DNA of 32,000 nt from Desulfotalea psychrophila LSv54 (GCF_000025945.1 NC_006138.1:360001-392000); one strand, 5' to 3'. Shown: positions 3,356-18,400, counted from the stretch's first letter. Translations and numbers: made by a program. The notes: a model not told the origin generated them from the sequence alone.

Positions 3356-3676
3356 CTACAACTCATCATCGACATCAAGTCCGTAATCTTCCTCTTCCTC
3401 TTCCTCATTTCCCTCATCATGGGTCTCAACTTCTTCCACAACCTCGTCGACTTCTGGCTCATCATCATGACGAACAGCCTTGGGAATTTTAGACTCAGGA
3501 AGAATCAATTCTGTTATTCTAGCAATCTCCCCTTTCAGGTCAGGATCGTGAAAGCATACATCACATCGCTCGGCATGCTGTTCAATAAACGATACCATAC
3601 GAGCTGGCGCCATTGTTTCGTCTTGGACATGTCGATGCCAAGATTTAATCAGACTAATAAGTCGTTCACACTGCAT
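3356..3676 (-). CDS. Small soluble protein with an HxxxCxxC (ZAS/zf-HC2-like) motif and a polyacidic C-terminal tail
   Basis: 106 aa: MQCERLISLIKSWHRHVQDETMAPARMVSFIEQHAERCDVCFHDPDLKGEI...EEVETHDEGNEEEEEEDYGLDVDDEL. The pattern is C3...H34-x3-C38-x2-C41. No transmembrane segment and no obvious RBS. Confidence 0.55.
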   Translation of the reverse strand: MQCERLISLIKSWHRHVQDETMAPARMVSFIEQHAERCDVCFHDPDLKGEIARITELILPESKIPKAVRHDDEPEVDEVVEEVETHDEGNEEEEEEDYGLDVDDEL

Positions 3677-3836: not shown

Positions 3837-3934
3837 GGAAGTGGACGGAGCACTGGTGGCTCCCCCGGATTTCAAATCCGGTGTAACGGGTTAATAGCTC
3901 GTTAGGTGGGTTCGATTCCCATGCACTTCCGCCA
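3837..3934 (+). tRNA. selC: tRNA-Sec (selenocysteine, anticodon TCA reading UGA)
   Basis: GGAAGTGG...GCACTTCC-G-CCA acceptor with an encoded CCA. Anticodon stem ccgga/tccgg with loop TT-TCA-AA (anticodon at 3872-3874). Long variable arm (tgtaacgggttaatagctcgttag). T arm gtggg-ttcgatt-cccat. 98 nt, and a close overall resemblance to E. coli selC (GGAAGAUC...UUCAAAUCC...GGUUCGA...CUUCCGCCA). Confidence 0.9.
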
Positions 3935-4049: not shown

Positions 4050-5423
4050 ATGAGCGAGAAAAAAAAACCTGCCATTAACGTAAGCGAAACAATCATCGAA
4101 AGTATTTCCGAAGGTCTTTTCACAGTTGACCACCAACTTAAAATAACGTCATTCAACAGGGCTGCAGAAAAAATCCTTGGTATCTCCAGGCAAGAGGCCA
4201 TAGGTAAGCACTGTTGGGAGATCTTTCAGTCAAACATGTGTGCATTCCACTGTGCCCTGAAACGCACCATAAAAGAAAAAAAATCGTTTACCAACTCATC
4301 TACCTTTATCAGAGACCACAAGCAACAAAAAATTCCAGTTATCGTCTCTACCTCTGTTTTACAAGATGAAGCAGGCAATATTCTAGGGGGCGTCGAAATT
4401 TTTCGCACCAAGGCCACCAGAGAAGAACTGCCAAGAGAAGCAACAGGCAATTTCCATTTGGAAAACATGGTCAGTCGCTCCCCCAAAATGCAAGACCTCT
4501 TCGCCATCCTCAAACAGGTTGCTCAAAGTGACAGTACCGTTCTGGTTGAAGGAGAGACAGGAACAGGCAAGGAACTCCTGGCAAGGGCAATCCACAATCT
4601 TTCCAGTCGAGCAAAACGGCCATTTGTCGCCGTCAACTGCGGCGCCCTCCCAGACACCTTACTGGAATCAGAGCTCTTTGGCTACAAGGCAGGAGCCTTT
4701 ACCGATGCGCGCCACGACAAAGACGGACTCTTTGCCGCAGCTGCAAACGGCACCATTTTTCTTGATGAGATAGGCGACACCAGCCCTGCCTTTCAGGTAC
4801 GCCTCCTTCGAGTTCTCGAAGAGCGAGAATTCCAGCCCCTGGGCAGTACCAAAAAAATAGCAACAAATGCCAGAATTATCACAGCAACCAATAAAGATCT
4901 CAGTCAACTGATCCATAAAGGACTCTTTCGTCAGGATCTTTTTTATCGCATCAACGTCATTATCCTCAAGCTCCCCCCTCTCAGGGAGCGCCGAGAAGAC
5001 ATCCCCTTGCTAATAGAACAAATTATCAGCAAGCTCAACAATATCAAGAATAGACAAATAACAGGCCTTTCTCCCGAGGCAGAAAAGTACCTGCTTTCCC
5101 ATGATTACCCAGGCAATATCAGAGAGTTGGAGAACATCATCGAGCACGCCTTTATCCTCTGTCGCGGCAACACCATTGATTATCCGCATTTCCCTGCCTA
5201 CCTCCAACAGGAGAGTAGACAGGTGACCCTCTCCGCTGACGAGAGCCCCAATAGCTTTGACTGGGCAGAGAAGGAAACTATCCTCAAGGCACTTGAGCAA
5301 AACGGCTATAACCGCCAGGCTGCGGCCGACCATCTCCGAATCCACAAAAGCACCCTCTTCCGCAAAATCAAACGACTCGGTATTAAGCTACCAAATCAAG
5401 ACGGACGTCACCGGAAAAGATAG
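4050..5423 (+). CDS. Sigma-54-dependent transcriptional activator (PAS sensor, AAA+ domain, Fis-type HTH; no receiver domain)
   Basis: PAS-like N-terminus (IIESISEGLFTVDHQLKITSFNRAAEKILG). Walker A GETGTGKELLARAIH. ESELFGY and GAFTDA (a GAFTGA-type sigma-54 contact loop). C-terminal HTH NRQAAADHLRIHKSTLFRKIKRLGI. Confidence 0.9.
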   Translation: MSEKKKPAINVSETIIESISEGLFTVDHQLKITSFNRAAEKILGISRQEAIGKHCWEIFQSNMCAFHCALKRTIKEKKSFTNSSTFIRDHKQQKIPVIVSTSVLQDEAGNILGGVEIFRTKATREELPREATGNFHLENMVSRSPKMQDLFAILKQVAQSDSTVLVEGETGTGKELLARAIHNLSSRAKRPFVAVNCGALPDTLLESELFGYKAGAFTDARHDKDGLFAAAANGTIFLDEIGDTSPAFQVRLLRVLEEREFQPLGSTKKIATNARIITATNKDLSQLIHKGLFRQDLFYRINVIILKLPPLRERREDIPLLIEQIISKLNNIKNRQITGLSPEAEKYLLSHDYPGNIRELENIIEHAFILCRGNTIDYPHFPAYLQQESRQVTLSADESPNSFDWAEKETILKALEQNGYNRQAAADHLRIHKSTLFRKIKRLGIKLPNQDGRHRKR

Positions 5424-5470
5424 TCGCATAGAGTCGCAACACCGCTCGGCGTGCGACCGTAATGGTCGCA
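5423..5470. promoter_or_regulatory. Four GTCGCA/TGCGAC hexamers; candidate upstream activator sequence (UAS) for the adjacent EBP
   Basis: GTCGCA at 5423-5428, 5433-5438 and 5465-5470; TGCGAC at 5452-5457. These form the inverted repeats GTCGCA-N13-TGCGAC and TGCGAC-N7-GTCGCA, about 105-155 nt upstream of the -24/-12 promoter. Confidence 0.4.
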
Positions 5471-5575
5471 AATCTACGCCACTATCTTTCCTAGATGAAA
5501 TGTATACAATTATAAATTGTTCTAAAAACAGACACCTATATCATAGCCCAGCTATTAATAACATATGCACAAAAC

Positions 5576-5590
5576 TGGCACTGCTTTTGC
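5576..5590 (+). promoter_or_regulatory. Sigma-54 (-24/-12) promoter
   Basis: TGGCACtgcttTTGC is an exact match to the TGGCAC-N5-TTGC consensus. It lies 52 nt upstream of ATG 5642 and directly downstream of a sigma-54 EBP gene. Confidence 0.75.
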
Positions 5591-5641
5591 CTATAAGAGA
5601 GTGACAGTTGATTAATCCTTCACTTAATATAGGTACATAAA

Positions 5642-6010
5642 ATGGATATACTTTTACTTGATGGACAAGAACCCTCTTTTCTCCAATTAAAAAAAAGTCT
5701 TGCTAAGAATGAAAAAAATGAGGTGACCTATACCTCTTCCAGCACAGAGGCAAAAAAGATCATAGGTGCCAATAAGGCAGCGGTCGTCCTTATTGCCGAG
5801 AATCTGGACAGCCAATCCGGGCTGGACTTTGCCAAAGAGATCGTTCCCATGAATCCTTTTATTAATTATGCCCTACAATCATCTCTCCCCTCTGAAAAAT
5901 TTCATGATGTAACGGAAGGATATGGCCTCTTTATGCAACTACCCCTCGATCCAGGAGCGGAAGATGCTGAACAGGTGACTCAAATCATCACCAAAATACA
6001 TCAAATTTAA
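5642..6010 (+). CDS. Stand-alone receiver-like (pseudo-receiver) protein
   Basis: MDILLLDGQ...AAVVLIAENLDSQSGLDFAKEIV has a CheY-like layout. However, the position after beta-3 is Glu (LIAE) where the phospho-Asp is expected, only one N-terminal acidic residue is present, and no KP(F) motif is visible (FMQLPLDP). Confidence 0.65.
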   Translation: MDILLLDGQEPSFLQLKKSLAKNEKNEVTYTSSSTEAKKIIGANKAAVVLIAENLDSQSGLDFAKEIVPMNPFINYALQSSLPSEKFHDVTEGYGLFMQLPLDPGAEDAEQVTQIITKIHQI

Positions 6011-6038
6011 AAAAATTGTTCAGTCCCGAGAGAAAACA

Positions 6039-6893
6039 ATGATAATAAGCATCGCCAGCGGCAAAGGTGGTACCGGCAAAACCACAATTTCCACCAACCT
6101 CGCCATAAGCCTTGAAGGTAAGGCCAAGCTTCTTGACTGTGATGTCGAAGAACCCAATGCTCACCTTTTCATCAAACCTGAGATCACTCTACGAGAAGAG
6201 TCCACCGTTTTTGTCCCTGTAATAGATGAATCGCTCTGCAACGGCTGTAAAAAATGTGCCGATATATGCAGATTCAACGCCCTTGCCGTCATTGGCAAGA
6301 AGGTACTCTGCTTCCCCGAACTCTGTCACAGCTGTGAAGGTTGCCTCCTTGTTTGCCCTGAACAGGCGATTTCTGCAGGCACCCGATCCCTTGGCTGGGT
6401 GGAAGAGGGAAAAAGAGAAAATATGGATTTTGTTCAGGGATGCATGCGCATCGGTGAGGCAATGTCACCTCCCCTTATCCGCGATGTCCGTAACAGAATC
6501 AAGGAAGGTGAAATTGCAATCATAGATGCCCCTCCAGGAACATCTTGCCCCGTTATTACCGCCATGAAGGATACCGACTTTGTCCTCTTGGTAACAGAGC
6601 CCACCCCCTTTGGCCTCCACGACCTTACCCTCGCTGTAGAGGCCGTCAAGGCACTTGGTATCCCCTGCGGGCTGATCATCAACCGGGCAAATCTGGGCTA
6701 TGACAAGGTACATGAGTATATAGCCTCGGAACAGATCCCCATCCTCCTGGAAATCCCCTTTGATCGAAAAATTGCTGAAATTTATTCCCAGGGAAAGATT
6801 CTTGTAGACGAATTGCCAGAATGGAAAGAGATTTTCCAGAGTCTTTTCAAAGACATTGTTAATATCATCCAGAAAGAGCAGGTGAAGCAATGA
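6039..6893 (+). CDS. MinD/ParA-family P-loop ATPase with an inserted 2x[4Fe-4S] ferredoxin domain (paralog 1)
   Basis: Deviant Walker A SGKGGTGKTT. Cys clusters CNGCKKCADIC and CHSCEGCLLVCP. Switch-region DAPPGTSCPV. Confidence 0.9.
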   Translation: MIISIASGKGGTGKTTISTNLAISLEGKAKLLDCDVEEPNAHLFIKPEITLREESTVFVPVIDESLCNGCKKCADICRFNALAVIGKKVLCFPELCHSCEGCLLVCPEQAISAGTRSLGWVEEGKRENMDFVQGCMRIGEAMSPPLIRDVRNRIKEGEIAIIDAPPGTSCPVITAMKDTDFVLLVTEPTPFGLHDLTLAVEAVKALGIPCGLIINRANLGYDKVHEYIASEQIPILLEIPFDRKIAEIYSQGKILVDELPEWKEIFQSLFKDIVNIIQKEQVKQ

Positions 6894-7789
6894 AAGAGCT
6901 TGTTATTATTAGTGGAAAAGGTGGCACAGGCAAGACAAGCATTACTGCGGCATTTGCCTCACTTGCCAAGAATCACATTCTCTGCGACGCAGATGTAGAT
7001 GCAGCCGATCTCCACCTGCTTACCCAGCCGACAATCGAACAGAGCCATGACTTCATGGGCGGCTGCCTAGCCGAGATCCGCCAAGACAAGTGCATAAGCT
7101 GCGGAACATGCCGAGATCTTTGCAAGTTTGGAGCCATCTCAGAAGATTTTGTCGTAGATCCCATTGGCTGTGAAGGCTGCGGTATCTGCGTTGACTTTTG
7201 CCCAGAACAGGCAATTGAATTTCCTCAGCAGAAGTGTGGCGATTGGTTTATCTCCTCCTGTAAATTCGGCCCCATGGTTCATGCCAGACTAGGCATTGCC
7301 GAAGAGAACTCCGGGAAGCTTGTCAGCCTCATCCGTAAGGAGGCAAAACAACTAGCCATGACAGATAGTTATGACTTGATCCTCACCGATGGCCCTCCAG
7401 GTATTGGTTGCCCTGTTATTGCTTCAATCACGGGAGCAACTGCCCTACTTCTGATTGTAGAGCCATCGCTCTCCGGCCTGCATGATATGCAGCGCGTGGC
7501 CCAGCTAGCCCAGCATTTCGCCATACCAACAATGGCCTGTATCAATAAATTTGACCTCAACCTTGAAGTAACAAAAGCCATTGAAGATTCTGCTGAAAAG
7601 TTAGGCCTGACAGTAGTCGGTCACGTTCCATTCAATCCAGTTTTTACCTACTCAATGGTGGAAGGTAAAAATATTTTCGAGTACGGAAAAGAGCCTGAAT
7701 TGCTCGATAATATTAAAGAAATTTGGCAGAAAATATCTTCTTCCAAGCCCATGACAGATAGCGAGAAAATCATACCTCTTGCCCAGTAA
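6890..7789 (+). CDS. MinD/ParA-family P-loop ATPase with an inserted 2x[4Fe-4S] ferredoxin domain (paralog 2)
   Basis: SGKGGTGKTS; CISCGTCRDLC and CEGCGICVDFCP; TDGPPGIGCPV. The start overlaps the previous stop (ATGA at 6890-6893), which implies translational coupling. Confidence 0.9.
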   Translation: MKELVIISGKGGTGKTSITAAFASLAKNHILCDADVDAADLHLLTQPTIEQSHDFMGGCLAEIRQDKCISCGTCRDLCKFGAISEDFVVDPIGCEGCGICVDFCPEQAIEFPQQKCGDWFISSCKFGPMVHARLGIAEENSGKLVSLIRKEAKQLAMTDSYDLILTDGPPGIGCPVIASITGATALLLIVEPSLSGLHDMQRVAQLAQHFAIPTMACINKFDLNLEVTKAIEDSAEKLGLTVVGHVPFNPVFTYSMVEGKNIFEYGKEPELLDNIKEIWQKISSSKPMTDSEKIIPLAQ

Positions 7790-7812
7790 TTTTTACAAGG
7801 AGAACTAAAAAA

Positions 7813-8193
7813 ATGGCTAAAATTCGCATTGCAATCCCATCCAACGGTGAAGGTGGTCTCGACGGAACACGTGCAGGACACTTTGGTCACTGTGATGTCT
7901 TTACCTTTATTGACGCGGAAGATGGAAAAATCATAGAAGTATCAACTACCGAGAACTTGGAGCACATTCAAGGCGGTTGCATGGTGCCTGTTAATCTACT
8001 TGCAGAGCACAAGGTCAACGCCCTGGTTGTCGGTGGTATTGGCATGCGCCCACTCATGGGCTTTAAGCAGGTCGGTATCGAAGTATATCACGATGCAGAA
8101 CGAATGGATATCCGCCCCGTTGTTGAAGATATGCTTGCAGGAAAGCTTCAACTTATTTCAAACGACCAAGTATGTGGTGGTGGTCAACAATAA
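7813..8193 (+). CDS. NifX/NifB-C-terminal-like protein (dinitrogenase FeMo-cofactor-binding fold, MTH1175-like)
   Basis: KIRIAIPSNGEGGLDGTRAGHFGHCDVFTFIDAEDGKI...ALVVGGIGMRPLMGFKQVGIEVY is a typical Nitro_FeMo-Co family layout. AAGGAG RBS at about 7797. Confidence 0.85.
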   Translation: MAKIRIAIPSNGEGGLDGTRAGHFGHCDVFTFIDAEDGKIIEVSTTENLEHIQGGCMVPVNLLAEHKVNALVVGGIGMRPLMGFKQVGIEVYHDAERMDIRPVVEDMLAGKLQLISNDQVCGGGQQ

Positions 8194-8220
8194 ACCCATT
8201 AGCCGGTAGAGGAAAATAAA

Positions 8221-8580
8221 ATGAAAATAGCCATAACCGCAACCGGCCCAAACCTGGATAGCCCTATTGATCCCCGTTTTGGCCGAGCTGCCTATATTAT
8301 TATTGTCGATCCAGAGAGCATGATCTTTGAGGCAGTAGACAATAGCACCAACGTCAACTCATTTAAAGGCGCGGGCATCCAAGCAGCCACTATGGTACAC
8401 GACAAAGGCGCAGAAGTGCTGATGACTGGATACTGTGGGCCAAAGGCATTTCAAATAATCGAAACTGCTGGCATCAAAGTGGTAAGCGATACAACAGGCA
8501 CCGTGGCCAATGCAGTGGAGAAATTCAACAAAGGAAATCTCCAATACACAAGCGCAGCAAACGCTGAAGCACACTGGTAA
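8221..8580 (+). CDS. NifX/NifB-C-terminal-like protein (second copy)
   Basis: MKIAITATGPNLDSPIDPRFGRAAYIIIVDPESMIFEAVDNS...GAGIQAATMVHDKGAEVLMTGYCGPKAFQIIETAGIKV. Confidence 0.85.
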   Translation: MKIAITATGPNLDSPIDPRFGRAAYIIIVDPESMIFEAVDNSTNVNSFKGAGIQAATMVHDKGAEVLMTGYCGPKAFQIIETAGIKVVSDTTGTVANAVEKFNKGNLQYTSAANAEAHW

Positions 8581-8625
8581 ACTGAACTTGGTAACTGAGT
8601 ATCTGCAGTAAAACGTTTACTCCCA

Positions 8626-8714
8626 TCAAGGTGAAAAAACAGCCTTTTAACTTTTATCCTAGTTAAAACAGTTAAAAGTCTGATATACTTTTTTCACCTT
8701 GAGTTTTTTATTTT
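8626..8714 (+). terminator. Long hairpin plus U-tract; terminator of the sigma-54 cassette
   Basis: A perfect 14-bp outer stem, tcaaggtgaaaaaa (8626-8639) with ttttttcaccttga (8689-8702). An inner 8-bp stem, cttttaac with gttaaaag. Followed by gttttttatttt. Confidence 0.6.
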
Positions 8715-8800: not shown

Positions 8801-9331
8801 ATGAAATCGGGTAAATTCATTGCCTATAGTGCAATTATTGCTCTATTCACTGCAGTTGTCCTGTTTTTCTATCTTCTCGACACGTCAAAGGCCCTCTCCT
8901 ATCTATCAACAGATCCCAAGGCCTGTATCAACTGTCACGTAATGAATGCCCAGTATGCAAGTTGGCAACATAGCTCCCATGCCAATCAGGCAGGTTGTAT
9001 TGACTGCCACCTGCCAACGGATAGCTTTGTCCATAAATACATCTCTAAGGCACGAGACGGATGGAACCACAGCGTCGCCTTTACCCTCAACACCTATGCA
9101 CCCCGAATTGAGATAAGTGCCGATGGGGCAAGACGGGTACAGGCCAACTGTATCTCCTGCCACAACAGGCTGACCGGCACCATCCGGGCAAACGAAGATA
9201 AGTACCACGATTTTTCAAAAGCAAAAGCGACAGAAAGAAAATGCTGGGATTGCCATCGAAACGTTCCCCATGGCGGCGTGCACAGCATCATATCAGCTCC
9301 AAATAATCTTGGTGTAAGAGAATTACAATAG
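8801..9331 (+). CDS. nrfH: NrfH, membrane-anchored tetraheme cytochrome c (NapC/NirT family), quinol-oxidising subunit of nitrite reductase
   Basis: N-terminal transmembrane helix plus four CxxCH motifs (CINCH, CIDCH, CISCH, CWDCH). Immediately upstream of nrfA. Confidence 0.9.
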   Translation: MKSGKFIAYSAIIALFTAVVLFFYLLDTSKALSYLSTDPKACINCHVMNAQYASWQHSSHANQAGCIDCHLPTDSFVHKYISKARDGWNHSVAFTLNTYAPRIEISADGARRVQANCISCHNRLTGTIRANEDKYHDFSKAKATERKCWDCHRNVPHGGVHSIISAPNNLGVRELQ

Positions 9332-9342
9332 GAGGAAACCCT

Positions 9343-10869
9343 GTGAATAAGTCCTATAAAATATTACTGACAGGATCGGTGATTGCAATTGGTGCCATGG
9401 GCCTCATGGCAAACTCCATCAACAGTCGAGAGGCAGAGCGAAAAGAGATCAACACGGGGCCTGTTGTCCAGGCTGAGGGAGTGGCCAGCAAAAACGAAGA
9501 GTGGTATCGTTACTATCCGCGAGAATACGATAGTTGGAAACAGACAAAAAAAAGCGACAAAATCACCGATCTTCTGAGAGAAAAGCCTCAACTTGCGATC
9601 ATCTGGGCCGGCTATGGCTTTGCCAAAGATTACAACGCCCCACGAGGTCATTTCTACGCCATCCAGGACAACATCAACACCCTGCGCACCGGCGCCCCCA
9701 CGGGACCATCCAATGGACCAATGCCCACGGCCTGCTGGACCTGTAAATCCCCCGATGTCCCCCGTCTGATGGACGAGGTGGGTGAAAATGAATTCTTTAC
9801 CGGAAAATGGGCCAAATATGGGAACCAAATCGTCAACCCCATTGGTTGCGCTGACTGTCACAATAGCCAGACGGGTAACCTCGGCTTTAGTCGACCTCAC
9901 CTGGGAAGAGCACTTGAGGCCAGTGGAGTAAATCTTGACGAGATCACCTTCCAAGACATGCGCACCCTGGTCTGTGCCCAATGTCACGTCGAATATTATT
10001 TCCGGCCAACGGAATGGACAGACAAAACGGGTAAGACAAAAACTGCCAAGGTGGTTACCCTGCCCTGGGCCAAGGGACTCTCAGCTGAAAACATGGAAGA
10101 GTATTACGATGAATATAGTTTTAAGGACTGGACCCATAAGATAAGCAAGGCCCCCATGCTCAAGGCTCAGCATCCGGGTTACGAACTCTTCTCCAAGGGA
10201 ATCCACGCCCAAAATGGCGTCTCCTGTGCCGACTGCCATATGCCCTACAAGCAACAGGGTTCCATCAAGTATACAGATCATAATATAGGCAATCCCCTGG
10301 ATGACATAGCCAGCACCTGCCTCACCTGCCACCGTGACAGTGAAAAGGCCTTCAGGGACCGCGTTGCCAGCAAACTTGAACGCAAAGAGCAGCTCATGAA
10401 GATGGCCATGGATACTCTGGCCGCAGCCCATCTTGAAGCAGGAAAGGCCTGGGAACTTGGGGCCACAGAGGCAGAGATGCAGCCCGTACTTGAGCTCCTT
10501 CGCTCCGGCCAATGGCTATGGGATTACTCCATTGCCAGCCATGGTTCCTTCTTTCACTCTCCCGAAGAGACCCTTCGGCTCTTGGGAGTAGCCAATGACA
10601 AGGGTGGCAAAGCGCGAATAAAACTTGCGGCAATTCTGGCTCAACATGGCCTGATCGGCTATCAGGTTCCAGATTTTTCTACCAAGGAAAAAGCCCAGGC
10701 ACTTGCCGGCGTCCCTCTCCAGAAGCTCATTACAGAGAAGAAGGCCTTCGAGTCAACCCTGCTTGAGCAGTGGAATGAGGAGGCCGTAAAAGCTGGCCGT
10801 CTTGATCCTAAAACCCTTGAAGGAATGAGCAACAAGAGTTCCTGGTCTCAAACCGAGCTCTCTCAGTAG
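9343..10869 (+). CDS. nrfA: NrfA, pentaheme cytochrome c nitrite reductase (ammonia-forming)
   Basis: Signal peptide. Diagnostic CWTCK (CxxCK active-site heme, 9733-9747) plus CADCH, CAQCH, CADCH and CLTCH. GTG start at 9343 with an AGGAGG RBS at 9331-9336. Confidence 0.95.
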   Translation: MNKSYKILLTGSVIAIGAMGLMANSINSREAERKEINTGPVVQAEGVASKNEEWYRYYPREYDSWKQTKKSDKITDLLREKPQLAIIWAGYGFAKDYNAPRGHFYAIQDNINTLRTGAPTGPSNGPMPTACWTCKSPDVPRLMDEVGENEFFTGKWAKYGNQIVNPIGCADCHNSQTGNLGFSRPHLGRALEASGVNLDEITFQDMRTLVCAQCHVEYYFRPTEWTDKTGKTKTAKVVTLPWAKGLSAENMEEYYDEYSFKDWTHKISKAPMLKAQHPGYELFSKGIHAQNGVSCADCHMPYKQQGSIKYTDHNIGNPLDDIASTCLTCHRDSEKAFRDRVASKLERKEQLMKMAMDTLAAAHLEAGKAWELGATEAEMQPVLELLRSGQWLWDYSIASHGSFFHSPEETLRLLGVANDKGGKARIKLAAILAQHGLIGYQVPDFSTKEKAQALAGVPLQKLITEKKAFESTLLEQWNEEAVKAGRLDPKTLEGMSNKSSWSQTELSQ

Positions 10870-11047: not shown

Positions 11048-12427
11048 ATGGACTTTATTAACTTTTCTCACTCAGGCCTGAAAATCAAAGAACTCACCAT
11101 TACTCCGGGGGATACCTGGTGCTTTTATGGAGGAAATCTCTCGGGCAGTGAAGCGTTCCTCCAACTACTTACTGGCAACCTCGGTCACGAAGGAAAAAAA
11201 CACCCAGCCGTCCTGCCTCAGGCGAGCGTGGTCTCCTTTGATAAACTCCAAGAGGTTTTTGAAGCGGAACTGGCCAAGGATGATTCAGATTTCCTTGACT
11301 ACCTTGATCCCGGTACAGTTGCCGGAGACTTCCTGCCCCATGGTAGCCTCTACCACCCCCTTGTCAGCATCCTGGGAATGAAGGAAAAGCTGGAAACCGG
11401 TTTTAAGCAGCTCAGCTCAGGTCAGGCAAGAAAACTGCTTCTCCTGGAGGCCATCCTTGGTGGGAAAAAACATATTATTCTGCACACCCCCTACGACGGT
11501 TTAGACAGCAAAAGTTGCCTAGAGCTCAACCTTGCCCTCCAGGCCCTACCCGAAAACCTGACCCTGCTCCTCTTTGTTCATAACATAGATGACATACCTG
11601 ACTGGTGCAGCCACATTGGCTGGTTTAAGGACAATGCCCTCTACCGCCAGGGAGACTACAAAGAGATTATCGGCGATATTCGAAGTGAAGAGCTGGAGAT
11701 ACGAGAGATAAACCTGCCCAGCCAGAGCCGTCCCTCCTCCGAAGAGCTACTCTATCTTCGGGCAGGATTTGGCAGCTACCAGGGAAAAAATGTCTTTACC
11801 GGCCTTAATCTACACATCCACTCCGGCGACCACCTCCTTATTACCGGGGCCAACGGCTGCGGCAAGTCGACCCTCCTCCAGATCATCACCGGAGACCATC
11901 CCGACTGCTACGTCAACGACCTCCGTCTCTTTGCCCATAAACGAGGCAGCGGCGAGTCTATCTGGGATATCAAAAAACAGATGGGTATTGTCTCCCCTGA
12001 TCTACATCGAAACCACAGATGCCCGGGTTCTGCCCTGCATATTGTTATCAGCGGTCTCTATGACACCATAGGTCTTTATGTACGTCCCAGTCAGCAGGAG
12101 ATTAAAGAGGGATTAAAATGGATTGCCTGGTTGGGCCTAGAGGAGAAAGCGGAAAAGCCATTTCGCAGCCTGAGCTTTGCCGAGCAACGACTGATCCTCA
12201 TCGCCCGAGGTCTAATAAAGATTCCTCGCCTCCTCATCCTCGACGAGGCAAGTCAGGGACTGGACGAAAGCTACCGGGAACAGTTTATGACCGTTATAGA
12301 AAAAATTGCCCGGGAACAGCTCTCCACCATCCTCTTTGTCAGCCACCGGGAAGATGAACATCGCGATTTTTTCAAATACCACATAAAACTGGGTCAGTAT
12401 AGCCCGCTAAACAGAGAGGAGAAGTAA
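11048..12427 (+). CDS. modF: ModF-like soluble ATPase with two ABC nucleotide-binding domains; the N-terminal domain is degenerate
   Basis: The C-terminal domain is canonical (GANGCGKST, LSFAEQRLILIARGL, LLILDEASQGLD). The segment ITGDHPDCYVNDLRLFAHKRGSGESIWDIKKQMGIVS closely recalls E. coli ModF. The N-terminal domain keeps LSSGQARKL but has GGNLSGSEA in place of Walker A and ILHTPYDGLD in place of Walker B. Confidence 0.75.
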   Translation: MDFINFSHSGLKIKELTITPGDTWCFYGGNLSGSEAFLQLLTGNLGHEGKKHPAVLPQASVVSFDKLQEVFEAELAKDDSDFLDYLDPGTVAGDFLPHGSLYHPLVSILGMKEKLETGFKQLSSGQARKLLLLEAILGGKKHIILHTPYDGLDSKSCLELNLALQALPENLTLLLFVHNIDDIPDWCSHIGWFKDNALYRQGDYKEIIGDIRSEELEIREINLPSQSRPSSEELLYLRAGFGSYQGKNVFTGLNLHIHSGDHLLITGANGCGKSTLLQIITGDHPDCYVNDLRLFAHKRGSGESIWDIKKQMGIVSPDLHRNHRCPGSALHIVISGLYDTIGLYVRPSQQEIKEGLKWIAWLGLEEKAEKPFRSLSFAEQRLILIARGLIKIPRLLILDEASQGLDESYREQFMTVIEKIAREQLSTILFVSHREDEHRDFFKYHIKLGQYSPLNREEK

Positions 12428-12428: not shown

Positions 12429-12734
12429 ATGATTACCGTTCTAGCCTCAATAACTGTCAAAGATGGCTCTATGGAGGAGTTTCTCCGTATATTCAAGGAG
12501 AACGTGTCAGCGGTTCTCGCCGAGGAGGGCTGTATTGAATACTACCCCGCCATCGATACCAGAACAGATCTCCCCCCCCAGATCTACCAGGAAAACACAG
12601 TAACCATCATAGAAAAATGGCAGAGCTTAGCCGCCCTCAAGGCCCATCTGGCCACAGCGCATATGCTTGCCTATAAAGAGGCCACCGCCTCCATGCTGGA
12701 AACACTCTCCCTCAAGATATTGGAAAACGCATAG
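12429..12734 (+). CDS. ABM-domain (antibiotic biosynthesis monooxygenase fold, YgiN-like) protein
   Basis: 101 aa. MITVLASITVKDGSMEEFLRIFKENVSAVLAEEGCIEYY...IIEKWQSLAALKAHLATAHMLAYK shows the typical ABM ferredoxin-like pattern. The start lies 1 nt after the modF-like stop, with a GAGGAG RBS. Confidence 0.7.
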   Translation: MITVLASITVKDGSMEEFLRIFKENVSAVLAEEGCIEYYPAIDTRTDLPPQIYQENTVTIIEKWQSLAALKAHLATAHMLAYKEATASMLETLSLKILENA

Positions 12735-12749
12735 GAGAGAGCACACTCT

Positions 12750-12873
12750 TTGCCCCCTCCTTGTCTCAGCCAATGACCAGGGCTACTGCCCCAAGTAGCC
12801 CATCGCTGAGAGCCTCAGGCCAACTACGTTCAGCCAATCTCATCGGTTGAGTAGCGGGCAGGAGGAGGGGCAA
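12750..12873 (+). other. Approximately 125-nt nested inverted-repeat element (multi-stem RNA structure or MITE/REP-like repeat)
   Basis: Outer arms ttgccccctcct (12750-12761) and aggaggaggggcaa (12860-12873). Inner stems are tctcagc/gctgaga (12764-12770 with 12805-12811), gggctact/agtagccc (12780-12787 with 12794-12801), gcc-tca-ggc, and cuac..ucagcc / gguuga-guag, which contains a G-U pair. Confidence 0.4.
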
Positions 12874-13281
12874 CCCCATAACATATTTTCCTACACTTAT
12901 ACCGACTCGACGCCAAAGGTAATCACACCCTGAAGGCTGTTACCCATCAAACTATTTTCTCCACCCAACTCGTTAATTCACCGAATCAAACTAAGCGAAA
13001 CTCTCTCTCCATTGATCTTCAATATCATTTTATTATCTCATTGCTATTTTTAAGAGGTAGCAGCGAGCTCTACAAACCAACATCCCAGAAAGCTGCTCTA
13101 TGGCAAATATGGATAAGCCCCGACAGCCATCACCCACAAATATTTCACCTTGATGGCGAACTACACAATATTAAAATCTATTTTAAACTCATTTTTTCTG
13201 TACTTAGTGATAAGTTTGTGGGATGCTAGCAGAAATCAGCTCTTCACCAGAACTCATCCGAAGAACCAAGGGCAAAAAATA

Positions 13282-14034
13282 ATGGTCAAGATACTCCTCA
13301 TACAGGCCGCCAGAAAACTGTGGACAGCAACAAAGGATCTGTTGCCAATAATCCTCATTATAGCCTTCTTTCAGATAGTTGTCATCAAACAGCCCCTGCC
13401 AGATGCAGGAGGGATACTGACAGGATTGCTCCTGGTAATCTTGGGTCTTGCCCTCTTTGTCGAAGGACTGGAAATTGCCCTCTTCCCCATCGGCGAAAGC
13501 ATGGCCCACGCCCTCTCTAAAAAAGGTAGTGTCTTTTGGGTCCTCACCTTTGCCTTTCTTCTCGGCTTCTCGACCACAATTGCAGAGCCCGCCCTGGTAG
13601 CGGTCTCCGGCAAGGCAGCAGACGTTGCCGTCCGGGGAGGCCTGCTGGAAAACACACCCCAGGCAATTGCCTCCTATGCAACAGGAATCCGACTTTCAGT
13701 GGCCTTTTCCGTTGGCCTTGCCATCCTCCTCGGCGTACTGCGTATCCTCCTGGGTTGGCCCATACATTTTATTATTATCGGCGGCTACCTGTTGGTGATG
13801 CTGATAAGCAGCGTCGCTCCCAAGGAGATAATCGGCATTGCCTACGATGCAGGAGGTGTCACCACCTCCACCATTACCGTTCCCCTCGTCACCGCTCTCG
13901 GAGTAGGTTTGGCAACGGTTATCAAAGGCAGAAGCCCCCTTCTCGATGGCTTTGGCCTCATCGCCTTCGCCTCCCTGTTACCCATGATATTCGTCATGGG
14001 CTACGGCATATTTATGTTTGGATGGGCATTATGA
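13282..14034 (+). CDS. DUF1538-type polytopic membrane protein (paralog A)
   Basis: [40 protein letters not shown]...[14 protein letters not shown]...[10 protein letters not shown]...[25 protein letters not shown]...[17 protein letters not shown] 13282 was chosen by alignment with the downstream paralog. The track ORF start at 13150 adds a non-homologous extension. Confidence 0.8.
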
Positions 14035-14807
14035 TAATTGAACTTTTTTGGACACTGCTCTCGACCATACGGGACGTTCTTCCCATCATCCTTCTCTTTG
14101 GTTTTTTTCAACTGGTGGTACTTCGCAGCGCCCTGCCCAATCCCAGACGTCTCTGCTTTGGCATTGTCTATGTTATCCTTGGTCTTACCCTCTTTTTAGT
14201 GGGACTTGAAAACGCCCTCTTCCCCATCGGCAAGATCATGGCTACCCAACTCACCGACCCCATCTTTCTCCAAGGTGACAGGGCAAGTATCGACCTCGGC
14301 TATTGGGCAAATTATGGGTGGATATACTGTTTTGCCGCCTGCATTGGCTTTGCCACAACCATTGCGGAGCCATCCCTTATAGCTGTCGCCTATAAGGCTA
14401 ATGAGGTGTCCGGTGGTGCCATTAGCAGCTGGGGCCTGCGCATCACCGTTGCCACAGGAGTTGCCATTGGCATCAGCCTTGGCTCATTTCGAATTGTCAC
14501 AGGAACACCCCTATATTTATATATAATGGTAGGGTATATTATTGTTATATTACAAACATTTTTCACCCCAAAATCCATTATCGCCCTGGCCTACGACTCG
14601 GGCGGAGTGACAACCTCCACGGTAACGGTACCCATTGTAACAGCGCTTGGACTCGGACTTGCCACCTCTGTGCCTGGACGATCTCCTGCAATTGACGGCT
14701 TTGGCCTCATCGCCTTTGCCTCTCTTTTTCCTATTATTACGGTATTAGGATATGCTCAATATATTCATTGGGTAAGTACTCGGAATAAGAAACCCATAAA
14801 GGAGTAA
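14031..14807 (+). CDS. DUF1538-type polytopic membrane protein (paralog B)
   Basis: [36 protein letters not shown]...[14 protein letters not shown]...[10 protein letters not shown]...[25 protein letters not shown]...[14 protein letters not shown]. The start overlaps the stop of paralog A (ATGA at 14031-14034). Confidence 0.8.
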
Positions 14808-14810
14808 AAT

Positions 14811-15158
14811 ATGCGATTTCAACTTATTCTAGCATCCGTTAAATCGGATATCACAGATAAGGTTGTTGATGGAGCAAAGGCAGCGGGAGCAACGGGAGCA
14901 ACAATTATCACTGCCCGTGGCACTGGCCTTCGTGAGGCAAAGACATTTTTTGGTCTCTCCCTGGAGGCTCAAACGGACATCATCATGTTCTTGGTAGAAG
15001 AACATGTTCTCCAACCCATACTCGATGCCATTGGTACCATAGGTGAGTTTCACAAACCAGGCACAGGCATCGCCTTTGTCCTGCCCGTGGACCAGGTTAT
15101 TGGCCTTGAAAGCCAGATAGAAAGATTTAAAGAAGAAGCGCGAAAAAAATACTTTTAA
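14811..15158 (+). CDS. PII-like signal-transduction protein with a shortened T-loop
   Basis: MRFQLILASVKSDITDKVVDGAKAAGATGATIITARGTGLREAKTFFGLSLEAQTDIIMFLV...HKPGTGIAFVLPVDQVIGL shows the PII beta-alpha-beta fold pattern. The T-loop is about 6 residues shorter than in GlnB and has no Tyr51 equivalent. AAGGAG RBS; the start lies 3 nt after the upstream stop. Confidence 0.75.
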   Translation: MRFQLILASVKSDITDKVVDGAKAAGATGATIITARGTGLREAKTFFGLSLEAQTDIIMFLVEEHVLQPILDAIGTIGEFHKPGTGIAFVLPVDQVIGLESQIERFKEEARKKYF

Positions 15159-15179
15159 TATCAATTAAGAGGTCACAAG

Positions 15180-15578
15180 ATGATTGAAAAAAAACTCGTC
15201 AGAGCCCGTGACGTAATGCGCAAACAGGTCCCCACCATCGATGGCATGGCCACCGCCCGCGATGCTGCCAATATGATGAAAGAGCATCAGGTCTCCTCAT
15301 TGATCGTCAATAAAAGGGACGAAAACGATGCCTACGGTCTTATCAGCATCCAGGACCTTATCACCGAGGTTATGATCCCGGCCCGGGAGGCAGATATGGT
15401 AAATGTCTATGAACTTATGACAAAACCAATCATTTCAGTCTCTGCTGATATGGACATCCGCTATGTAATCCGTCTGCTACACAGGGTAAATATGCGCCGC
15501 GCCCCCGTGGAAGAGAATGGTCACCTGGTTGGCATGGTCACCCTCACCTCACTGGTTCTCGACCACGATCTTTTTTAA
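15180..15578 (+). CDS. CBS-domain pair protein
   Basis: 132 aa with two CBS repeats (VRARDVMRKQVPTIDGMATARDAANMMKEHQVSSLIV... and VYELMTKPIISVSADMDIRYVIRLLHRVNMRRAPVEENGHLVGMVT). Confidence 0.85.
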   Translation: MIEKKLVRARDVMRKQVPTIDGMATARDAANMMKEHQVSSLIVNKRDENDAYGLISIQDLITEVMIPAREADMVNVYELMTKPIISVSADMDIRYVIRLLHRVNMRRAPVEENGHLVGMVTLTSLVLDHDLF

Positions 15579-16528: not shown

Positions 16529-18400
16529 CTAGAGGTGCTGAGGAATATCCCGTGGATCGGTCATCTTTTCAGGCGAGAGCATATCATCCAGCTCCTTCTT
16601 GGTAAGCAGACCCTTCTCCAGGACAAGATTATAAACGCTGCCACCTGTCTTCAGGGCCTCCTTGGCAATGGCAGCAGACGGCTCATAACCGATAACCGGG
16701 ACCAAAGCGGTAACAAGACCAATGCTATTTTCCACATAGGAACGACAGACGTCACGATTCGCCTCAATACCGACGATGCAACGAGAGGCCAAGGTGACGC
16801 AGGCATTTTTAAGAATCATCATACCGTGGAGCAGGTCGTAGGCAATAATTGGCTCCGCCATACAGAGCTCCAACTCACTGGACTCGGCGGCCATGGAAAC
16901 CACAGTATCGTAGCCAATAACCTGATAGCAGATCTGATTGACCACCTCAGGAATAACAGGATTAACCTTGCCCGGCATGATGGAAGAGCCTGGCTGCATG
17001 GGTGGCAGGTTTATCTCATTGAGACCACAACGGGGCCCGGAGGAGAGCCAGCGCAGATCATTACATATCTTTGAAATTTGCACCGCAGCCCGTTTCATGG
17101 TCGCAGACATCTGGACAAAGGTACCCGCATTTTGGGTGGCCTCAACAAGATTTCCTGCTCTTTTCAGGGGAAAGCCACTCACCTCAACAAGCTTTTCAGT
17201 TACCAGATCGGCATAGCCTAGAGGACAGTTAATGCCGGTGCCAATGGCAGTAGCCCCCATATTAATATGCATAAACTCTTCGGATGCACCCTCTATGGCA
17301 CGCATGGCACTTCCCACCATTACAGCATAGGCACTAAATTCCTGGCCAAGAGTCATGGGCACCGCATCCTGATTTTCCGTTCGTCCCATCTTCAAAACAT
17401 CCTTAAACTCAACGGATTTTTGCAGAAGGGCATTTTTCAGATCCTCCATCCCTCGGGCCAGGTTACGATGCGAGAGCAGTACGGCAAGTTTGACCGCCGT
17501 GGGATAGGTATCGTTGGTCGACTGAGAACAGTTGGCATGATCGTTGGGATGCAGGTACTGATACTCTCCCTTCTCATGCCCCATAAGCTCCAGACCACGG
17601 TTGGTTATGACCTCGTTGGCATTCATATTGGTGGAGGTGCCCGCCCCGCCCTGGAACATATCCACTGCAAAATGCTCATGCAATTTACCCTCTAAGAGCT
17701 CAACACAAGCTCCACAGAGAGCCTCCATCTTCTCCCCATCCATCACCCCAAGCTCAAAGTTAGCGCGAGCAGCAGCAATCTTAATAAAGGCAAATCCTTC
17801 GATGAGATGACTAAAATTACTTACCGGCACCCCGGAGATCGGAAAATTCTCTATAGCTCTCTGAGTTTGCACCCCATAATAGGCATCACCGGGAATCTCC
17901 CTATGTCCCAGGGAATCATGTTCCAGGCGAAAACCGCTCATCGTCCGTCTTTTACAGGTTTCACCATAAAGCTGCTCGGAAAGTGTGCGCATACGCCTAT
18001 TGATGGCCACCGCGACCCGGGAAACCAATCGATAAAATATCTCCGGTTGCTCCTTTCTGAAAACATCAATCTTTTCCCGGGAAACCTGCCAGACCACCGC
18101 CCCTAAACGGGTATAACCTCCATTGGCATGGGAATCCTGATCAATAAAGACACCCTCGGATATCAATCCTCCCGCAGAAACGGTACCAACACGGTGAGAG
18201 CTACCATGCAGGCCACGAACAAGCTGAATCTCTCCGGCAAGAATAATTCCTGCCCAGTTTCTAGGAGTTGATTCCTGAAAGAGCCAATCACCGGCTGCAT
18301 ACTCTATACGCTCACCCTGAGCAAAAAATGTCTGTAAATCTACCTCTTCAATTCCCGCCGTCAGCGCTGCCTGCTTAAGAGTATTTTCATCTAACTTCAT
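16529..18400 (-). CDS. aspA: Aspartate ammonia-lyase fused to an N-terminal cyclic-nucleotide-binding-like domain
   Basis: The core is near-collinear with E. coli AspA (DSLGHREIPGDAYYGVQTQRAIENF, MGHEKGEYQYLHPNDHANCSQSTNDTYPTA, GSSIMPGKVNPVIPEVVNQ). The first ~155 residues form a cNMP-binding-like beta-barrel (IEYAAGDWLFQESTPRNWAGIILAGEIQLVRG...GGLISEGVF). I set the start at ATG 18400 (MKLDENT) because the track TTG at 18412 lies inside the GGAGGA RBS (18405-18410). Confidence 0.9.
   Translation of the reverse strand: MKLDENTLKQAALTAGIEEVDLQTFFAQGERIEYAAGDWLFQESTPRNWAGIILAGEIQLVRGLHGSSHRVGTVSAGGLISEGVFIDQDSHANGGYTRLGAVVWQVSREKIDVFRKEQPEIFYRLVSRVAVAINRRMRTLSEQLYGETCKRRTMSGFRLEHDSLGHREIPGDAYYGVQTQRAIENFPISGVPVSNFSHLIEGFAFIKIAAARANFELGVMDGEKMEALCGACVELLEGKLHEHFAVDMFQGGAGTSTNMNANEVITNRGLELMGHEKGEYQYLHPNDHANCSQSTNDTYPTAVKLAVLLSHRNLARGMEDLKNALLQKSVEFKDVLKMGRTENQDAVPMTLGQEFSAYAVMVGSAMRAIEGASEEFMHINMGATAIGTGINCPLGYADLVTEKLVEVSGFPLKRAGNLVEATQNAGTFVQMSATMKRAAVQISKICNDLRWLSSGPRCGLNEINLPPMQPGSSIMPGKVNPVIPEVVNQICYQVIGYDTVVSMAAESSELELCMAEPIIAYDLLHGMMILKNACVTLASRCIVGIEANRDVCRSYVENSIGLVTALVPVIGYEPSAAIAKEALKTGGSVYNLVLEKGLLTKKELDDMLSPEKMTDPRDIPQHL

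Follow-up and report, generated by a model that had tools for sequence, protein, structure and literature searches.

Organisation of the locus

Positions 4050-8714 of the window, a 32-kb stretch of Desulfotalea psychrophila LSv54, carry one unidirectional orp unit, in which a sigma-54 activator gene (orpR) precedes a sigma-54 promoter and an operon of five genes; selC and nrfHA flank it. The features are as follows:

3837-3934: tRNA-Sec (selC), flank of the cassette
4050-5423, + strand: orpR, sigma-54 enhancer-binding protein, 457 aa (Pfam PAS, Sigma54_activat, AAA_lid_14, HTH_8)
5416-5489, unstranded: candidate OrpR upstream activating sequence (UAS), a 74-bp imperfect palindrome with clustered GTCGCA
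5576-5590, + strand: sigma-54 (-24/-12) promoter TGGCACtgcttTTGC, perfect TGGCAC-N5-TTGC
5642-6010, + strand: RecL, single-domain pseudo-receiver, 122 aa (AF2 model, Foldseek, column statistics)
6039-6893, + strand: first MinD/Mrp-class ATPase, in the position of Orp4 (Pfam CbiA/ParA, two Fer4 motifs)
6890-7789, + strand: second MinD/Mrp-class ATPase, in the position of Orp3 (Pfam CbiA/ParA, two Fer4 motifs)
7813-8193, + strand: stand-alone Di-Nase/NifX-like protein (Pfam Nitro_FeMo-Co, 1.2e-18)
8221-8580, + strand: ORP, orange protein, Orp8 ortholog (Pfam Nitro_FeMo-Co, 6.8e-21; best PDB match 2WFB)
8626-8714, + strand: intrinsic terminator at the operon end (hairpin 8626-8702, then GAGTTTTTTATTTT)
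8801-9331: nrfH, flank of the cassette
9343-10869: nrfA, flank of the cassette
11048-12427: ModF-like gene, nearby in the window

The five genes are separated by 28, -4, 23 and 27 bp, the negative spacer being the ATGA at 6890-6893 in which the stop of the first ATPase gene overlaps the start of the second. The terminator hairpin has a folding energy of -28.5 kcal/mol (z=-5.8), and its T-run follows directly. An initial annotation of this DNA had described the gene content, the promoter, the five packed genes with their ATGA overlap, the strong terminator and nrfHA as the next operon, and every checkable detail was confirmed, positions included. It had also proposed HMM searches, in which the cassette proteins matched Sigma54_activat, CbiA/ParA, Fer4 and Nitro_FeMo-Co, with Response_reg below the Pfam cut-off.

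Taking identity and regulatory logic jointly, the locus is very probably the D. psychrophila version of the described orp (ORange Protein) cluster with its redox-sensing OrpR. The cassette is already a named and partly characterised system, not an orphan and not new as a discovery.

The activator and its promoter

The activator call is borne out by Pfam, which finds PAS, Sigma54_activat (E=1.9e-68), AAA_lid_14 and HTH_8 in OrpR. The PAS domain contains C55, C64 and C68 (C-x8-C-x3-C) together with E57, and each of the three cysteines is present in 100% of 39 homologs. This spacing is identical to the PAS signature of Desulfovibrio vulgaris OrpR (DVU2106), which is C52, C61 and C65 with D/E at 54 (PMC8359166). 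The two proteins also have in common the PAS-AAA+-HTH architecture, the acidic residue at C+2, a gene beside the target promoter (a predicted target in D. psychrophila) and a GAFTDA variant of the GAFTGA loop, which reads KAGAFTDAR in D. psychrophila and is entered for DVU2106 as well (PMC4641369). As in D. vulgaris, repeated palindromic half-sites, here candidate ones, lie upstream. In D. vulgaris, OrpR senses redox state through the [4Fe-4S] cluster of its PAS domain, works when the redox potential is low and is needed for orp expression; the orp promoters were its sole targets in ChIP-seq (PMC8359166).

The consensus promoter that had been noted after the activator, 52 bp 5' of the first ATG (the RecL gene), is the sole perfect TGGCAC-N5-TTGC on either strand of the 32 kb. 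Chance would give 0.08 such matches, and 8 of 100 shuffled sequences had one. At least 25 related loci have a sigma-54-type motif upstream of their ATPase genes; in those with an orpR gene, the motif follows its stop by about 150 bp.

The window contains ten GTCGCA hexamers, and four of them cluster within 5423-5470. These half-sites (5423, 5433, 5452 on the minus strand, and 5465) form inverted and direct repeats that include a perfect TGCGACC-N5-GGTCGCA, and the palindrome around them (5416-5489), whose centre precedes the -24 element by about 125 bp, is a candidate site at which OrpR would bind. Related loci have GTCGC-N6-GCGAC palindromes at the same place, although their spacing is unlike that of the D. 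psychrophila copy, and the D. vulgaris OrpR site, GGGCGYRTTTTGCGCCC, is built on GGGCG...CGCCC rather than on GTCGCA half-sites. In D. vulgaris, orp control depends on sigma-54, OrpR and IHF (PMC3897727); between the UAS and the promoter of D. psychrophila no good IHF consensus was found, the best match having two mismatches.

Proteins of the operon

RecL reaches only E=1.3e-3 against Pfam Response_reg (score 19.3, below the cut-off of 30.2), and 37 of 44 RecL homologs match that family. Its AF2 model (pLDDT 94.4) has (beta-alpha)5 topology and superimposes on REC domains with Foldseek TM values of 0.75-0.80, so the fold is the one found in single-domain response regulators such as CheY, Spo0F and DivK. 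The active site, however, does not match: Ala52 occupies the phospho-acceptor position, the acidic pair is absent and Leu100 replaces the conserved Lys. We therefore rejected a canonical response-regulator receiver, and the first gene does encode, as had been proposed, a pseudo-receiver. The protein has no cysteines, and it matches a D. psychrophila database protein at 100%.

The family to which RecL belongs comprises 814 representatives and lies in orp-type clusters in every context that could be inspected. Of 70 members, 34 retain the acceptor Asp, whereas the Mg-binding acidic pair and conserved Lys are missing family-wide. On the alpha4-beta5 face the family has a signature of its own, the invariant FH-x3-EG-x-G, which sets it apart from CheY, Spo0F and DivK. 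That RecL belongs to a small, discrete pseudo-receiver family is a modest new point.

The two ATPases are 29% identical to each other, and both have one-to-one orthologs in a distant cluster (L081). Each matches CbiA/ParA and two Fer4 motifs in Pfam, so the description of two paralogous MinD/ParA ATPases with a 2x[4Fe-4S] insert holds. The insert motifs are C67/70/73/77 and C96/99/102/106 in the first ATPase, which has the deviant Walker A SGKGGTGKT, and C68/71/74/78 and C94/97/100/104 in the second, which has C32 and C116 as extra conserved cysteines. The GxxCPV switch cysteine noted earlier is indeed conserved, with Cys170 of the first (PPGTSCPV) and Cys174 of the second (PPGIGCPV) invariant in 81 and 77 homologs, respectively. 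In L081, Leu takes the place of C34 of the first ATPase, leaving the switch-II cysteine as the one universal extra cysteine per subunit.

Database relatives of the first ATPase number more than 8000 at E<1e-10. Its AF2 model (pLDDT 87.8) ends in a long helix (260-283), and its top Foldseek matches are archaeal MinD, ApbC, FlhG and Cfd1 (E=1e-9 to 1e-11); the best PDB sequence matches of the ATPases are MinD. In both proteins the hydrophobic moment peaks in the C-terminal helix, where residues 266-279 of the first and 270-283 of the second are the most amphipathic 14-mers. Deviant Walker A, fold and C-terminal amphipathic helix are thus shared with the SIMIBI P-loop ATPases Mrp/NBP35/ApbC and MinD/FlhG. 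The D. psychrophila ATPases differ from Mrp and MinD in having a ferredoxin domain of about 60 residues with two clusters inserted after switch I, and they do not have the Mrp-type CXXC of Mrp/NBP35/ApbC. PDB sequence and Foldseek searches matched the insert to none of the solved structures.

Both small NifX-like proteins match Nitro_FeMo-Co, as annotated, and the idea that they bind clusters fits. The Di-Nase protein has three invariant cysteines (HFGHC27, GGC56 and C121GGG) and aligns to positions 264-365 of the NCBIfam MrpORP model (E=8e-14); HFGHC has been proposed as a [3Fe-4S] ligand set in MrpORP (PMC6345978). Against 2WFB, the Desulfovibrio (Megalodesulfovibrio) gigas ORP, it reaches E=2.7e-6 only. 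The last gene product has 2WFB as its top PDB match (E=5.9e-28, 49% identity over 114 aa) and, judged by this match, is the ortholog of the D. gigas orange protein (Orp8). The two are of equal length and of the same Nitro_FeMo-Co fold family, but D. gigas ORP has Val in place of Cys72 (GYCGPK), which is conserved in the Desulfobulbales set. Orange proteins are distinguished by a non-covalently bound [S2MoS2CuS2MoS2] cluster.

Comparison with the D. vulgaris orp system

The orp1 and orp2 operons and the ORP complex of D. vulgaris Hildenborough span DVU2103-DVU2109 (Fievet 2011, PMC3897727, PMC6345978). They too have a sigma-54 promoter, a dedicated adjacent EBP, ORP plus another Di-Nase protein, and an operon that opens with a small non-ATPase gene, after which come the paralogous pair of MinD-type ATPases, each with two ferredoxin motifs. 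Orp3 and Orp4 are described as MinD-type, with a deviant Walker A, two CX2CX2CX3C motifs and a C-terminal amphipathic helix (PMC6345978), a description that the D. psychrophila pair fits. On published motifs and signatures together with the ORP, rather than on direct alignment to DVU2103, DVU2104 and DVU2106, the two ATPases and the activator are probable orthologs of Orp3, Orp4 and OrpR. The earlier idea that the ATPases act as a pair agrees with the co-purification from D. vulgaris of His-tagged Orp3 with Orp4 and Orp8; all three take Fe-S from MrpORP (PMC6345978).

The two systems also differ. D. vulgaris has two divergent operons, whereas D. psychrophila has one unidirectional operon and a single predicted target promoter for OrpR. 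The first gene encodes the small, cysteine-containing [2Fe-2S] protein Orp5 in D. vulgaris but the cysteine-free pseudo-receiver in D. psychrophila, where Orp5 was not found. A "41% similarity" is quoted for Orp3/Orp4, against the 29% identity of the ATPases studied here. MrpORP (Orp9), an Mrp/NBP35 P-loop with CXXC fused to a Di-Nase domain, has no counterpart in the cassette and is absent from the window: matches to the NCBIfam model reach 23-52 bits where the cut-off is 450, and tblastn of an MrpORP-like protein on the window returned the Di-Nase gene only. That the D. psychrophila copy does without MrpORP and Orp5 is a second modest new point. Because both of these and an IscU-like gene are absent, the predicted D. 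psychrophila complex differs from that of D. vulgaris.

Gene neighbourhoods in relatives

Neighbourhoods were counted in the best 80 related loci from a genome scan, all of them from Desulfobulbales or Desulfobacterales (Desulfobacterota). The neighbourhood comparison that the initial annotation had suggested found the five-gene order conserved: it is colinear in 38 of these loci, 24 of which have the activator upstream on the same strand, and the arrangement is therefore far beyond chance. Relatives also add genes, which is likewise a modest new point: an IscU-like NifU_N gene lies immediately 3' of ORP in 40 of the best 80 loci, 48 of the 80 have a further NifX-like gene, and 23 encode an MrpORP-like fusion. 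Further orp-type clusters have CGGC, radical-SAM or Mrp genes alongside. Cluster L081 contains a Cys-rich Zn_ribbon_8 protein, missing from the D. psychrophila copy, which is possibly of the Orp5 type, although this is a guess.

Similar gene sets in Desulfovibrio and archaea had been mentioned in the initial annotation, correctly in substance (Scholten 2007, cited in PMC8359166). The accompanying remark that they lack an assigned function was too simple, as orp and OrpR are named and partly characterised: sigma-54/OrpR/IHF control, the PAS sensor, ChIP-seq targets and a morphology phenotype have been published.

Proposed mechanism and alternatives

By homology with D. vulgaris, OrpR would sit on the GTCGCA repeats that begin at its own stop codon, with a redox-sensitive [4Fe-4S] cluster on C55, C64 and C68 of its PAS domain. 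Remodelling of sigma-54 RNA polymerase by the AAA+ domain, at the promoter at 5576-5590, would take place at low redox potential only. The resulting transcript, reaching to about 8700, would supply RecL, the two ATPases, the three-cysteine Di-Nase Fe-S protein and ORP. The two ATPases and ORP would join in one complex, as shown in D. vulgaris, and this complex may serve as an ATP-dependent device to hold, reduce or hand on metal-sulfur clusters, possibly at the membrane via the C-terminal amphipathic helices. The Di-Nase proteins would then be carriers, and RecL would partner with the two ATPases or regulate them independently of phosphorylation.

We regard the biochemical role as an ATP-dependent metal-sulfur cluster device as a real possibility, somewhat short of probable. 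More tentative is the fuller version, in which the five-part module would be a self-contained, anaerobe-specific, ATP-driven cluster machine, not one for cell division, that assembles or inserts Fe-S or Mo/W-Cu-S clusters; in it, RecL would be devoted to regulating the ATPases without phosphorylation, and an inter-subunit metal site would be formed by the switch-II cysteines.

A cell-division role is rather unlikely in our view. This hypothesis (Fievet et al. 2011) takes the ATPase pair to control, in the manner of MinD, where anaerobes divide or place their septum, with the Fe-S and NifX-like parts as redox inputs only. It draws on the closest solved folds (archaeal MinD, FlhG and MinD), the MinD sequence matches, the amphipathic C-terminal helices seen here and in Orp3/Orp4, the localisation of MrpORP at the poles (PMC6345978) and the altered cell morphology of the D. 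vulgaris orpR mutant, the sole published phenotype, whose authors lean towards a division role (PMC8359166). However, ApbC, Cfd1 and HypB-type Mrp proteins fit the fold about as well as MinD, the morphology phenotype could be indirect, and the MinD models score far under their cut-offs (34 and 47 versus 213 bits for TIGR01968; 65 and 64 versus 202 for TIGR01969). No minC, minE or fts genes occur in 80+ neighbourhoods, and the conserved neighbours are all metallocluster proteins. Metal-cluster handling is favoured over cell division because of the five-gene core, the pseudo-receiver family and the IscU-like, Mrp, CGGC and radical-SAM neighbours; the comparative picture points more towards it.

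We consider it improbable that the pair is instead an ATP-driven low-potential reductase like NifH, BchL or CfbC, passing electrons from a switch-II-bridged cluster to a separate client. The invariant switch-II cysteine of both paralogs lies seven residues past the Walker-B Asp, which would agree with the spacing from D125 to C132 in Azotobacter vinelandii NifH, and the ferredoxin insert would offer an electron path. NifH structures appear among the fold matches at rank 31, and C34 of the first ATPase aligns with C38 of NifH, but the HMMER alignment to NifH leaves out the switch-II region, C34 is not universal, and one universal extra cysteine per subunit is left. Pfam Fer4_NifH matches are partial, confined to the C-terminal region and below the cut-off of 25 (22.7 and 19.5 bits). 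The window encodes no NifDK, BchNB or CfbD-like partner, nor is one conserved among the neighbourhoods, in line with the earlier remark that no nitrogenase, CfbCD or other obvious client enzyme is present. It is very improbable that the cassette serves a neighbour, be it the nitrite reductase genes nrfHA, selC (selenium metabolism) or the ModF-like gene (molybdate handling): these genes are close in the D. psychrophila genome only, a strong terminator stands between nrfH and the cassette, no ABC/ModF family is among the conserved neighbour clusters of the best 80 related loci, and nrfH/nrfA homologs lie beside the ATPases in 0 of those 80, on which ground the nrfHA link was rejected.

Significance

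The ORP system occurs widely among strict anaerobes and is tightly tied to low redox potential, and 15 years of work on it have concerned one organism. With its five genes, the D. psychrophila copy is a compact version and could be simpler to reconstitute.

Layout and identity of the cassette

The initial annotation had described the cassette as a sigma-54 activator and promoter followed by a pseudo-receiver, two Fe-S ATPases, two small NifX-like proteins and a terminator. The ORF list, the Pfam scan and our reading of the sequence matched this description exactly, and the ATGA overlap it had claimed between the two ATPase genes is present in the sequence. The features are as follows:

3837–3934: tRNA-Sec, upstream of the cassette
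4050–5423 (+): OrpR-type activator, 457 aa, with PAS, Sigma54_activat (E=1.9e-68), AAA_lid_14 and HTH_8 domains (Pfam)
5576–5590 (+): sigma-54 promoter TGGCACtgcttTTGC, inside the 218-bp spacer that follows the activator stop codon
5642–6010 (+): receiver-like protein, 122 aa (RecL)
6039–6893 (+): first CbiA/ParA-type ATPase, two Fer4 motifs (Pfam)
6890–7789 (+): second CbiA/ParA-type ATPase, two Fer4 motifs (Pfam)
7813–8193 (+): first Nitro_FeMo-Co protein (Pfam), the first Di-Nase protein
8221–8580 (+): second Nitro_FeMo-Co protein (Pfam), the orange protein (ORP)
8626–8702: terminator closing the unit, a long hairpin (−28.5 kcal/mol, z=−5.8) and then a T-run

The intergenic gaps in the five-gene run are 28, −4, 23 and 27 bp, and nrfH and nrfA lie downstream of the cassette. 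A perfect match to TGGCAC-N5-TTGC occurs at only one site on either strand of the 32-kb window (0.08 expected by chance). tRNA-Sec was the sole match in an Rfam scan of the window. Just upstream of it, on the opposite strand, a 106-aa ORF (3356–3676, −) had no match in Pfam or NCBIfam; it contains CDVC, and its C-terminal tail is strongly acidic.

The product of the last gene matches the Desulfovibrio gigas ORP structure (PDB 2WFB) with E=5.9e-28 and 49% identity over 114 residues, and we therefore assign the cassette to the orp clusters; the first Di-Nase protein matches 2WFB at just 2.7e-6. In D. vulgaris Hildenborough, the orp genes form divergent operons, DVU2105-2103 and DVU2107-2109, on either side of DVU2106, which encodes OrpR (PMC4641369, PMC8359166, PMC3897727). 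Orp3 and Orp4 are paralogous ATPases, each with two [4Fe-4S] ferredoxin motifs; Orp5 is a homolog of a small [2Fe-2S] protein; Orp8 is the orange protein, homologs of which hold a Mo-Cu-S cluster; and Orp9 (MrpORP) fuses an Mrp/NBP35 domain to a Di-Nase domain (PMC6345978). Unlike this arrangement, the D. psychrophila orp genes form a single unidirectional operon, from which MrpORP is absent.

Judged by its sequence, then, the cassette is a compact, unidirectional, MrpORP-less form of the already known ORP/OrpR system. What the initial annotation had observed is borne out, and its interpretation of an Fe-S ATPase/NifX-like cassette is supported in part, the system being one already described. 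Our assignments of Orp3, Orp4 and OrpR come from published motifs together with the ORP match, rather than from direct alignment to DVU2103-2109. Literature searches on Orp function and on the D. psychrophila orange protein returned nothing beyond the known ORP/OrpR papers, and comparative genomics by Fievet in 2011 may already list D. psychrophila.

All ORP orthologs of the window clade have a cysteine at position 72 (GYCGPK), where D. gigas ORP has Val. Cys72 could act as an additional ligand in ORP, which reportedly binds its cluster non-covalently.

Conservation across related loci

Using the first ATPase as the seed of a genome scan, we kept the best 80 loci, all from Desulfobacterota, and mapped the window proteins by phmmer onto their mechanically called ORFs. 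In the gene-order comparison that the initial annotation had proposed, the order pseudo-receiver, ATPase, ATPase, Di-Nase, ORP was colinear in 38 of these 80 loci; several further loci are interrupted by contig ends. Of the 38, 24 also have a co-oriented OrpR homolog upstream. In a second architecture, seen chiefly where the locus label is Desulfobacterales or Desulfobacteraceae, the genes upstream of the ATPases encode a longer ORP-like protein and a ParA/Nitro_FeMo-Co fusion of ~420 aa (MrpORP-like).

None of the best 80 loci has nrfH or nrfA beside the ATPases, so the nrfHA adjacency is peculiar to the D. psychrophila genome. The adjacency of a ModF-like gene is also absent from related loci. 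We rejected a functional tie to nrfHA, selC or the ModF-like gene because adjacency is not conserved.

All-against-all clustering of flanking ORFs revealed a seven-gene operon in most Desulfobulbales relatives. An extra NifX-like gene (~137 aa, C-terminal MPGC, Pfam Nitro_FeMo-Co score slightly below cut-off) comes after the sigma-54 promoter in 48 loci, and a NifU_N/IscU-like gene (~150 aa) lies downstream of ORP in 40. For example, related locus L003 has them at 9096–9509 and 12562–13014, respectively. The D. psychrophila window has neither gene.

A protein search with D. gigas ORP yielded metagenome proteins, whose contigs (L081–L083) belong to another lineage. The ORP of L081 is 68% identical to that of D. 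gigas, and in this more distant cluster each of the five window proteins has one ortholog (identities 46%, 49%, 45%, 51% and 29%). This one-to-one orthology argues that the ATPase duplication is old.

OrpR and its regulatory region

In D. vulgaris, orp transcription requires OrpR, a regulator that works at low redox potential only and whose PAS domain holds a [4Fe-4S] cluster; the cluster needs C52, C61 and C65, near which D/E54 is also conserved, and ChIP-seq showed no OrpR targets other than the orp promoters (PMC8359166). The window activator shares the C-x8-C-x3-C spacing (C55, C64, C68) and has its acidic residue (E57) at the matching place, two residues past the first cysteine; none of the three cysteines varies among 39 activator homologs from related loci. 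Its loop reads GAFTDA, the unusual form given for DVU2106 (PMC4641369). The OrpR homolog of related locus L007 (7145–8569) has GAFTGA in its place.

Four of the ten GTCGCA hexamers in the window fall inside 5423–5470. They are enclosed by a 74-bp imperfect palindrome (5416–5489) that starts at the orpR stop codon and contains a perfect TGCGACC-N5-GGTCGCA. The centre of this candidate upstream activating sequence (UAS) lies ~125 bp ahead of the −24 element, which is usual for an enhancer. Related loci carry GTCGC-N6-GCGAC palindromes in the equivalent spacer, often two, so half-site spacing in the window is unlike that of its relatives. The spacers downstream of L007:7145–8569 and L011:7070–8569 have TTGCAT/ATGCAA-type palindromes, not GTCGC/GCGAC. 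At least 25 loci have TGGCA[CT]-N5-TTGC upstream of the ATPase genes; in those with orpR, the motif comes ~150 bp past the orpR stop codon. The window's short promoter-to-gene spacing recurs in a Desulfotalea MAG (L012).

The D. vulgaris OrpR site, GGGCGYRTTTTGCGCCC (PMC8359166), is unlike the GTCGCA half-sites of the window. Between the UAS and the promoter, a stretch with 67% AT (53% window-wide), the best IHF match had two mismatches and was unconvincing. We only infer that OrpR binds the candidate UAS, because half-site sequence, spacing and IHF site do not fit neatly. Lineages with the TTGCAT/ATGCAA repeat include loci with a GAFTGA OrpR, which suggests that OrpR and its target site changed together from lineage to lineage.

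The ATPase pair and the first Di-Nase protein

The two ATPases are 29% identical to each other. Both have the deviant Walker A motif SGKGGTGKT, and the eight ferredoxin cysteines are invariant, as is a switch-II cysteine (C170, PPGTSCPV, in the first; C174, PPGIGCPV, in the second). A PDB sequence search found no solved structure of this ATPase family, the best match being archaeal MinD (1.6e-10). An AlphaFold model of the first ATPase (pLDDT 87.8) is nearest to archaeal MinD, ApbC, FlhG, Cfd1, MinD and Mrp-type HypB, with NifH at rank 31. In each ATPase the most amphipathic segment is the C-terminal helix, as published for Orp3/Orp4 (PMC6345978).

The two switch-II cysteines may, as the initial annotation proposed, bridge a cluster between the subunits. 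The switch-II cysteine lies seven residues past the Walker-B Asp; by this spacing it would be equivalent to C132 of NifH, likewise seven residues past D125. A HMMER alignment to NifH covered only the N-terminal P-loop/switch-I region and paired C34 of the first ATPase with NifH C38, which is not known to be a cluster ligand. The L081 ortholog has Leu at the C34 position, so a single extra cysteine per subunit is universal.

The first Di-Nase protein aligns to positions 264–365 of the NCBIfam MrpORP model, the Di-Nase portion of that model (E=8e-14), and has three invariant cysteines: C27 (in HFGHC), C56 and C121. An HFGHC motif and a C-terminal Cys are the proposed [3Fe-4S] ligands of MrpORP (PMC6345978), and the first Di-Nase protein probably binds an Fe-S cluster as well.

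An orp-associated pseudo-receiver

RecL fell below the Pfam Response_reg threshold, although 37 of its 44 homologs match that family (best 3e-10). Its model (pLDDT 94.4) folds as a (beta-alpha)5 receiver, with TM 0.75–0.80 to REC domains. In this family the acidic pair is missing, the conserved-Lys position is always taken by Leu, Ile or Val, and only 34 of 70 members retain the phospho-acceptor Asp; the window RecL has Ala52. The family motif FH-x3-EG-x-G (E92, G93 and G95 invariant, F87 and H88 near-invariant) maps to the alpha4-beta5 face.

Among 1.84 billion representatives, a profile search returned only 814 RecL relatives at E<=1e-3, so RecL forms a small, discrete family distinct from the general receiver superfamily. 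Every informative context sampled contained two ferredoxin-insert ATPases and two Nitro_FeMo-Co genes, and homologs at L081:13089–13460, L084:5732–6121, L085:6001–6399 and L087:6001–6363 lie in orp-type clusters. The distant contexts L084, L085 and L087 also hold DUF134, stand-alone Mrp (ParA), radical-SAM and CGGC-domain (PF08821) genes.

In the ORP literature searched, no pseudo-receiver appears among the D. vulgaris Orp components. RecL sits at the orp5 position of D. vulgaris, yet it is cysteine-free and so is not Orp5. L081 has an ankyrin-repeat protein upstream, as well as a Cys-rich Zn_ribbon_8 protein; the latter may be of the Orp5 type.

Other genes in the window

The ModF-like gene (11048–12427, +), 2.5 kb downstream of the ORP gene, encodes a double ABC ATPase nearest to ModF of molybdate transport (323 bits, equivalog cut-off 459); an ABM monooxygenase-like gene (12429–12734) comes next. 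At 13150–15578 (+), two DUF1538 membrane proteins come first and then a P-II-like and a tandem-CBS protein, an arrangement suggestive of a transporter and its regulators. The stretch at 16529–22211 (−) encodes another PAS/sigma-54 activator, this one with an HTH_50 domain (20487–22211), upstream of an unannotated 172-aa ORF (19786–20304), a DcuA/DcuB C4-dicarboxylate transporter (18439–19746) and an aspartate ammonia-lyase (16529–18412), whose ~160-aa N-terminal extension may reflect an over-long start. The 16529–22211 stretch has no perfect −24/−12 motif.

Regulation and function

By homology to D. vulgaris, the OrpR/sigma-54 regulatory logic is well supported: OrpR would sense low redox potential and activate the sigma-54 promoter, giving a five-gene transcript. 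Complex formation by the orp products is supported by co-purification in D. vulgaris, where Orp4 and Orp8 co-purify with His-tagged Orp3 and MrpORP can load them with Fe-S in vitro (PMC6345978).

As to what the complex does, we lean tentatively towards metal-sulfur cluster handling because its neighbours include IscU-like, Mrp, extra NifX-like, CGGC and radical-SAM genes. These neighbours also include, in 12 loci, a pyridine-nucleotide-disulfide oxidoreductase, which has a rhodanese domain in at least one of them (L033). The original authors, who call the role unclear, favour a direct or indirect part in cell division (PMC8359166), which we consider rather unlikely given that the orp neighbourhoods examined contain no min or fts genes. 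That the ATPase pair acts as a NifH-like reductase is improbable, since no client enzyme is conserved.

To the known ORP/OrpR system, this analysis adds GTCGC-type candidate OrpR sites, IscU-like and extra NifX-like genes in the orp operons of relatives, and an orp-associated pseudo-receiver family.
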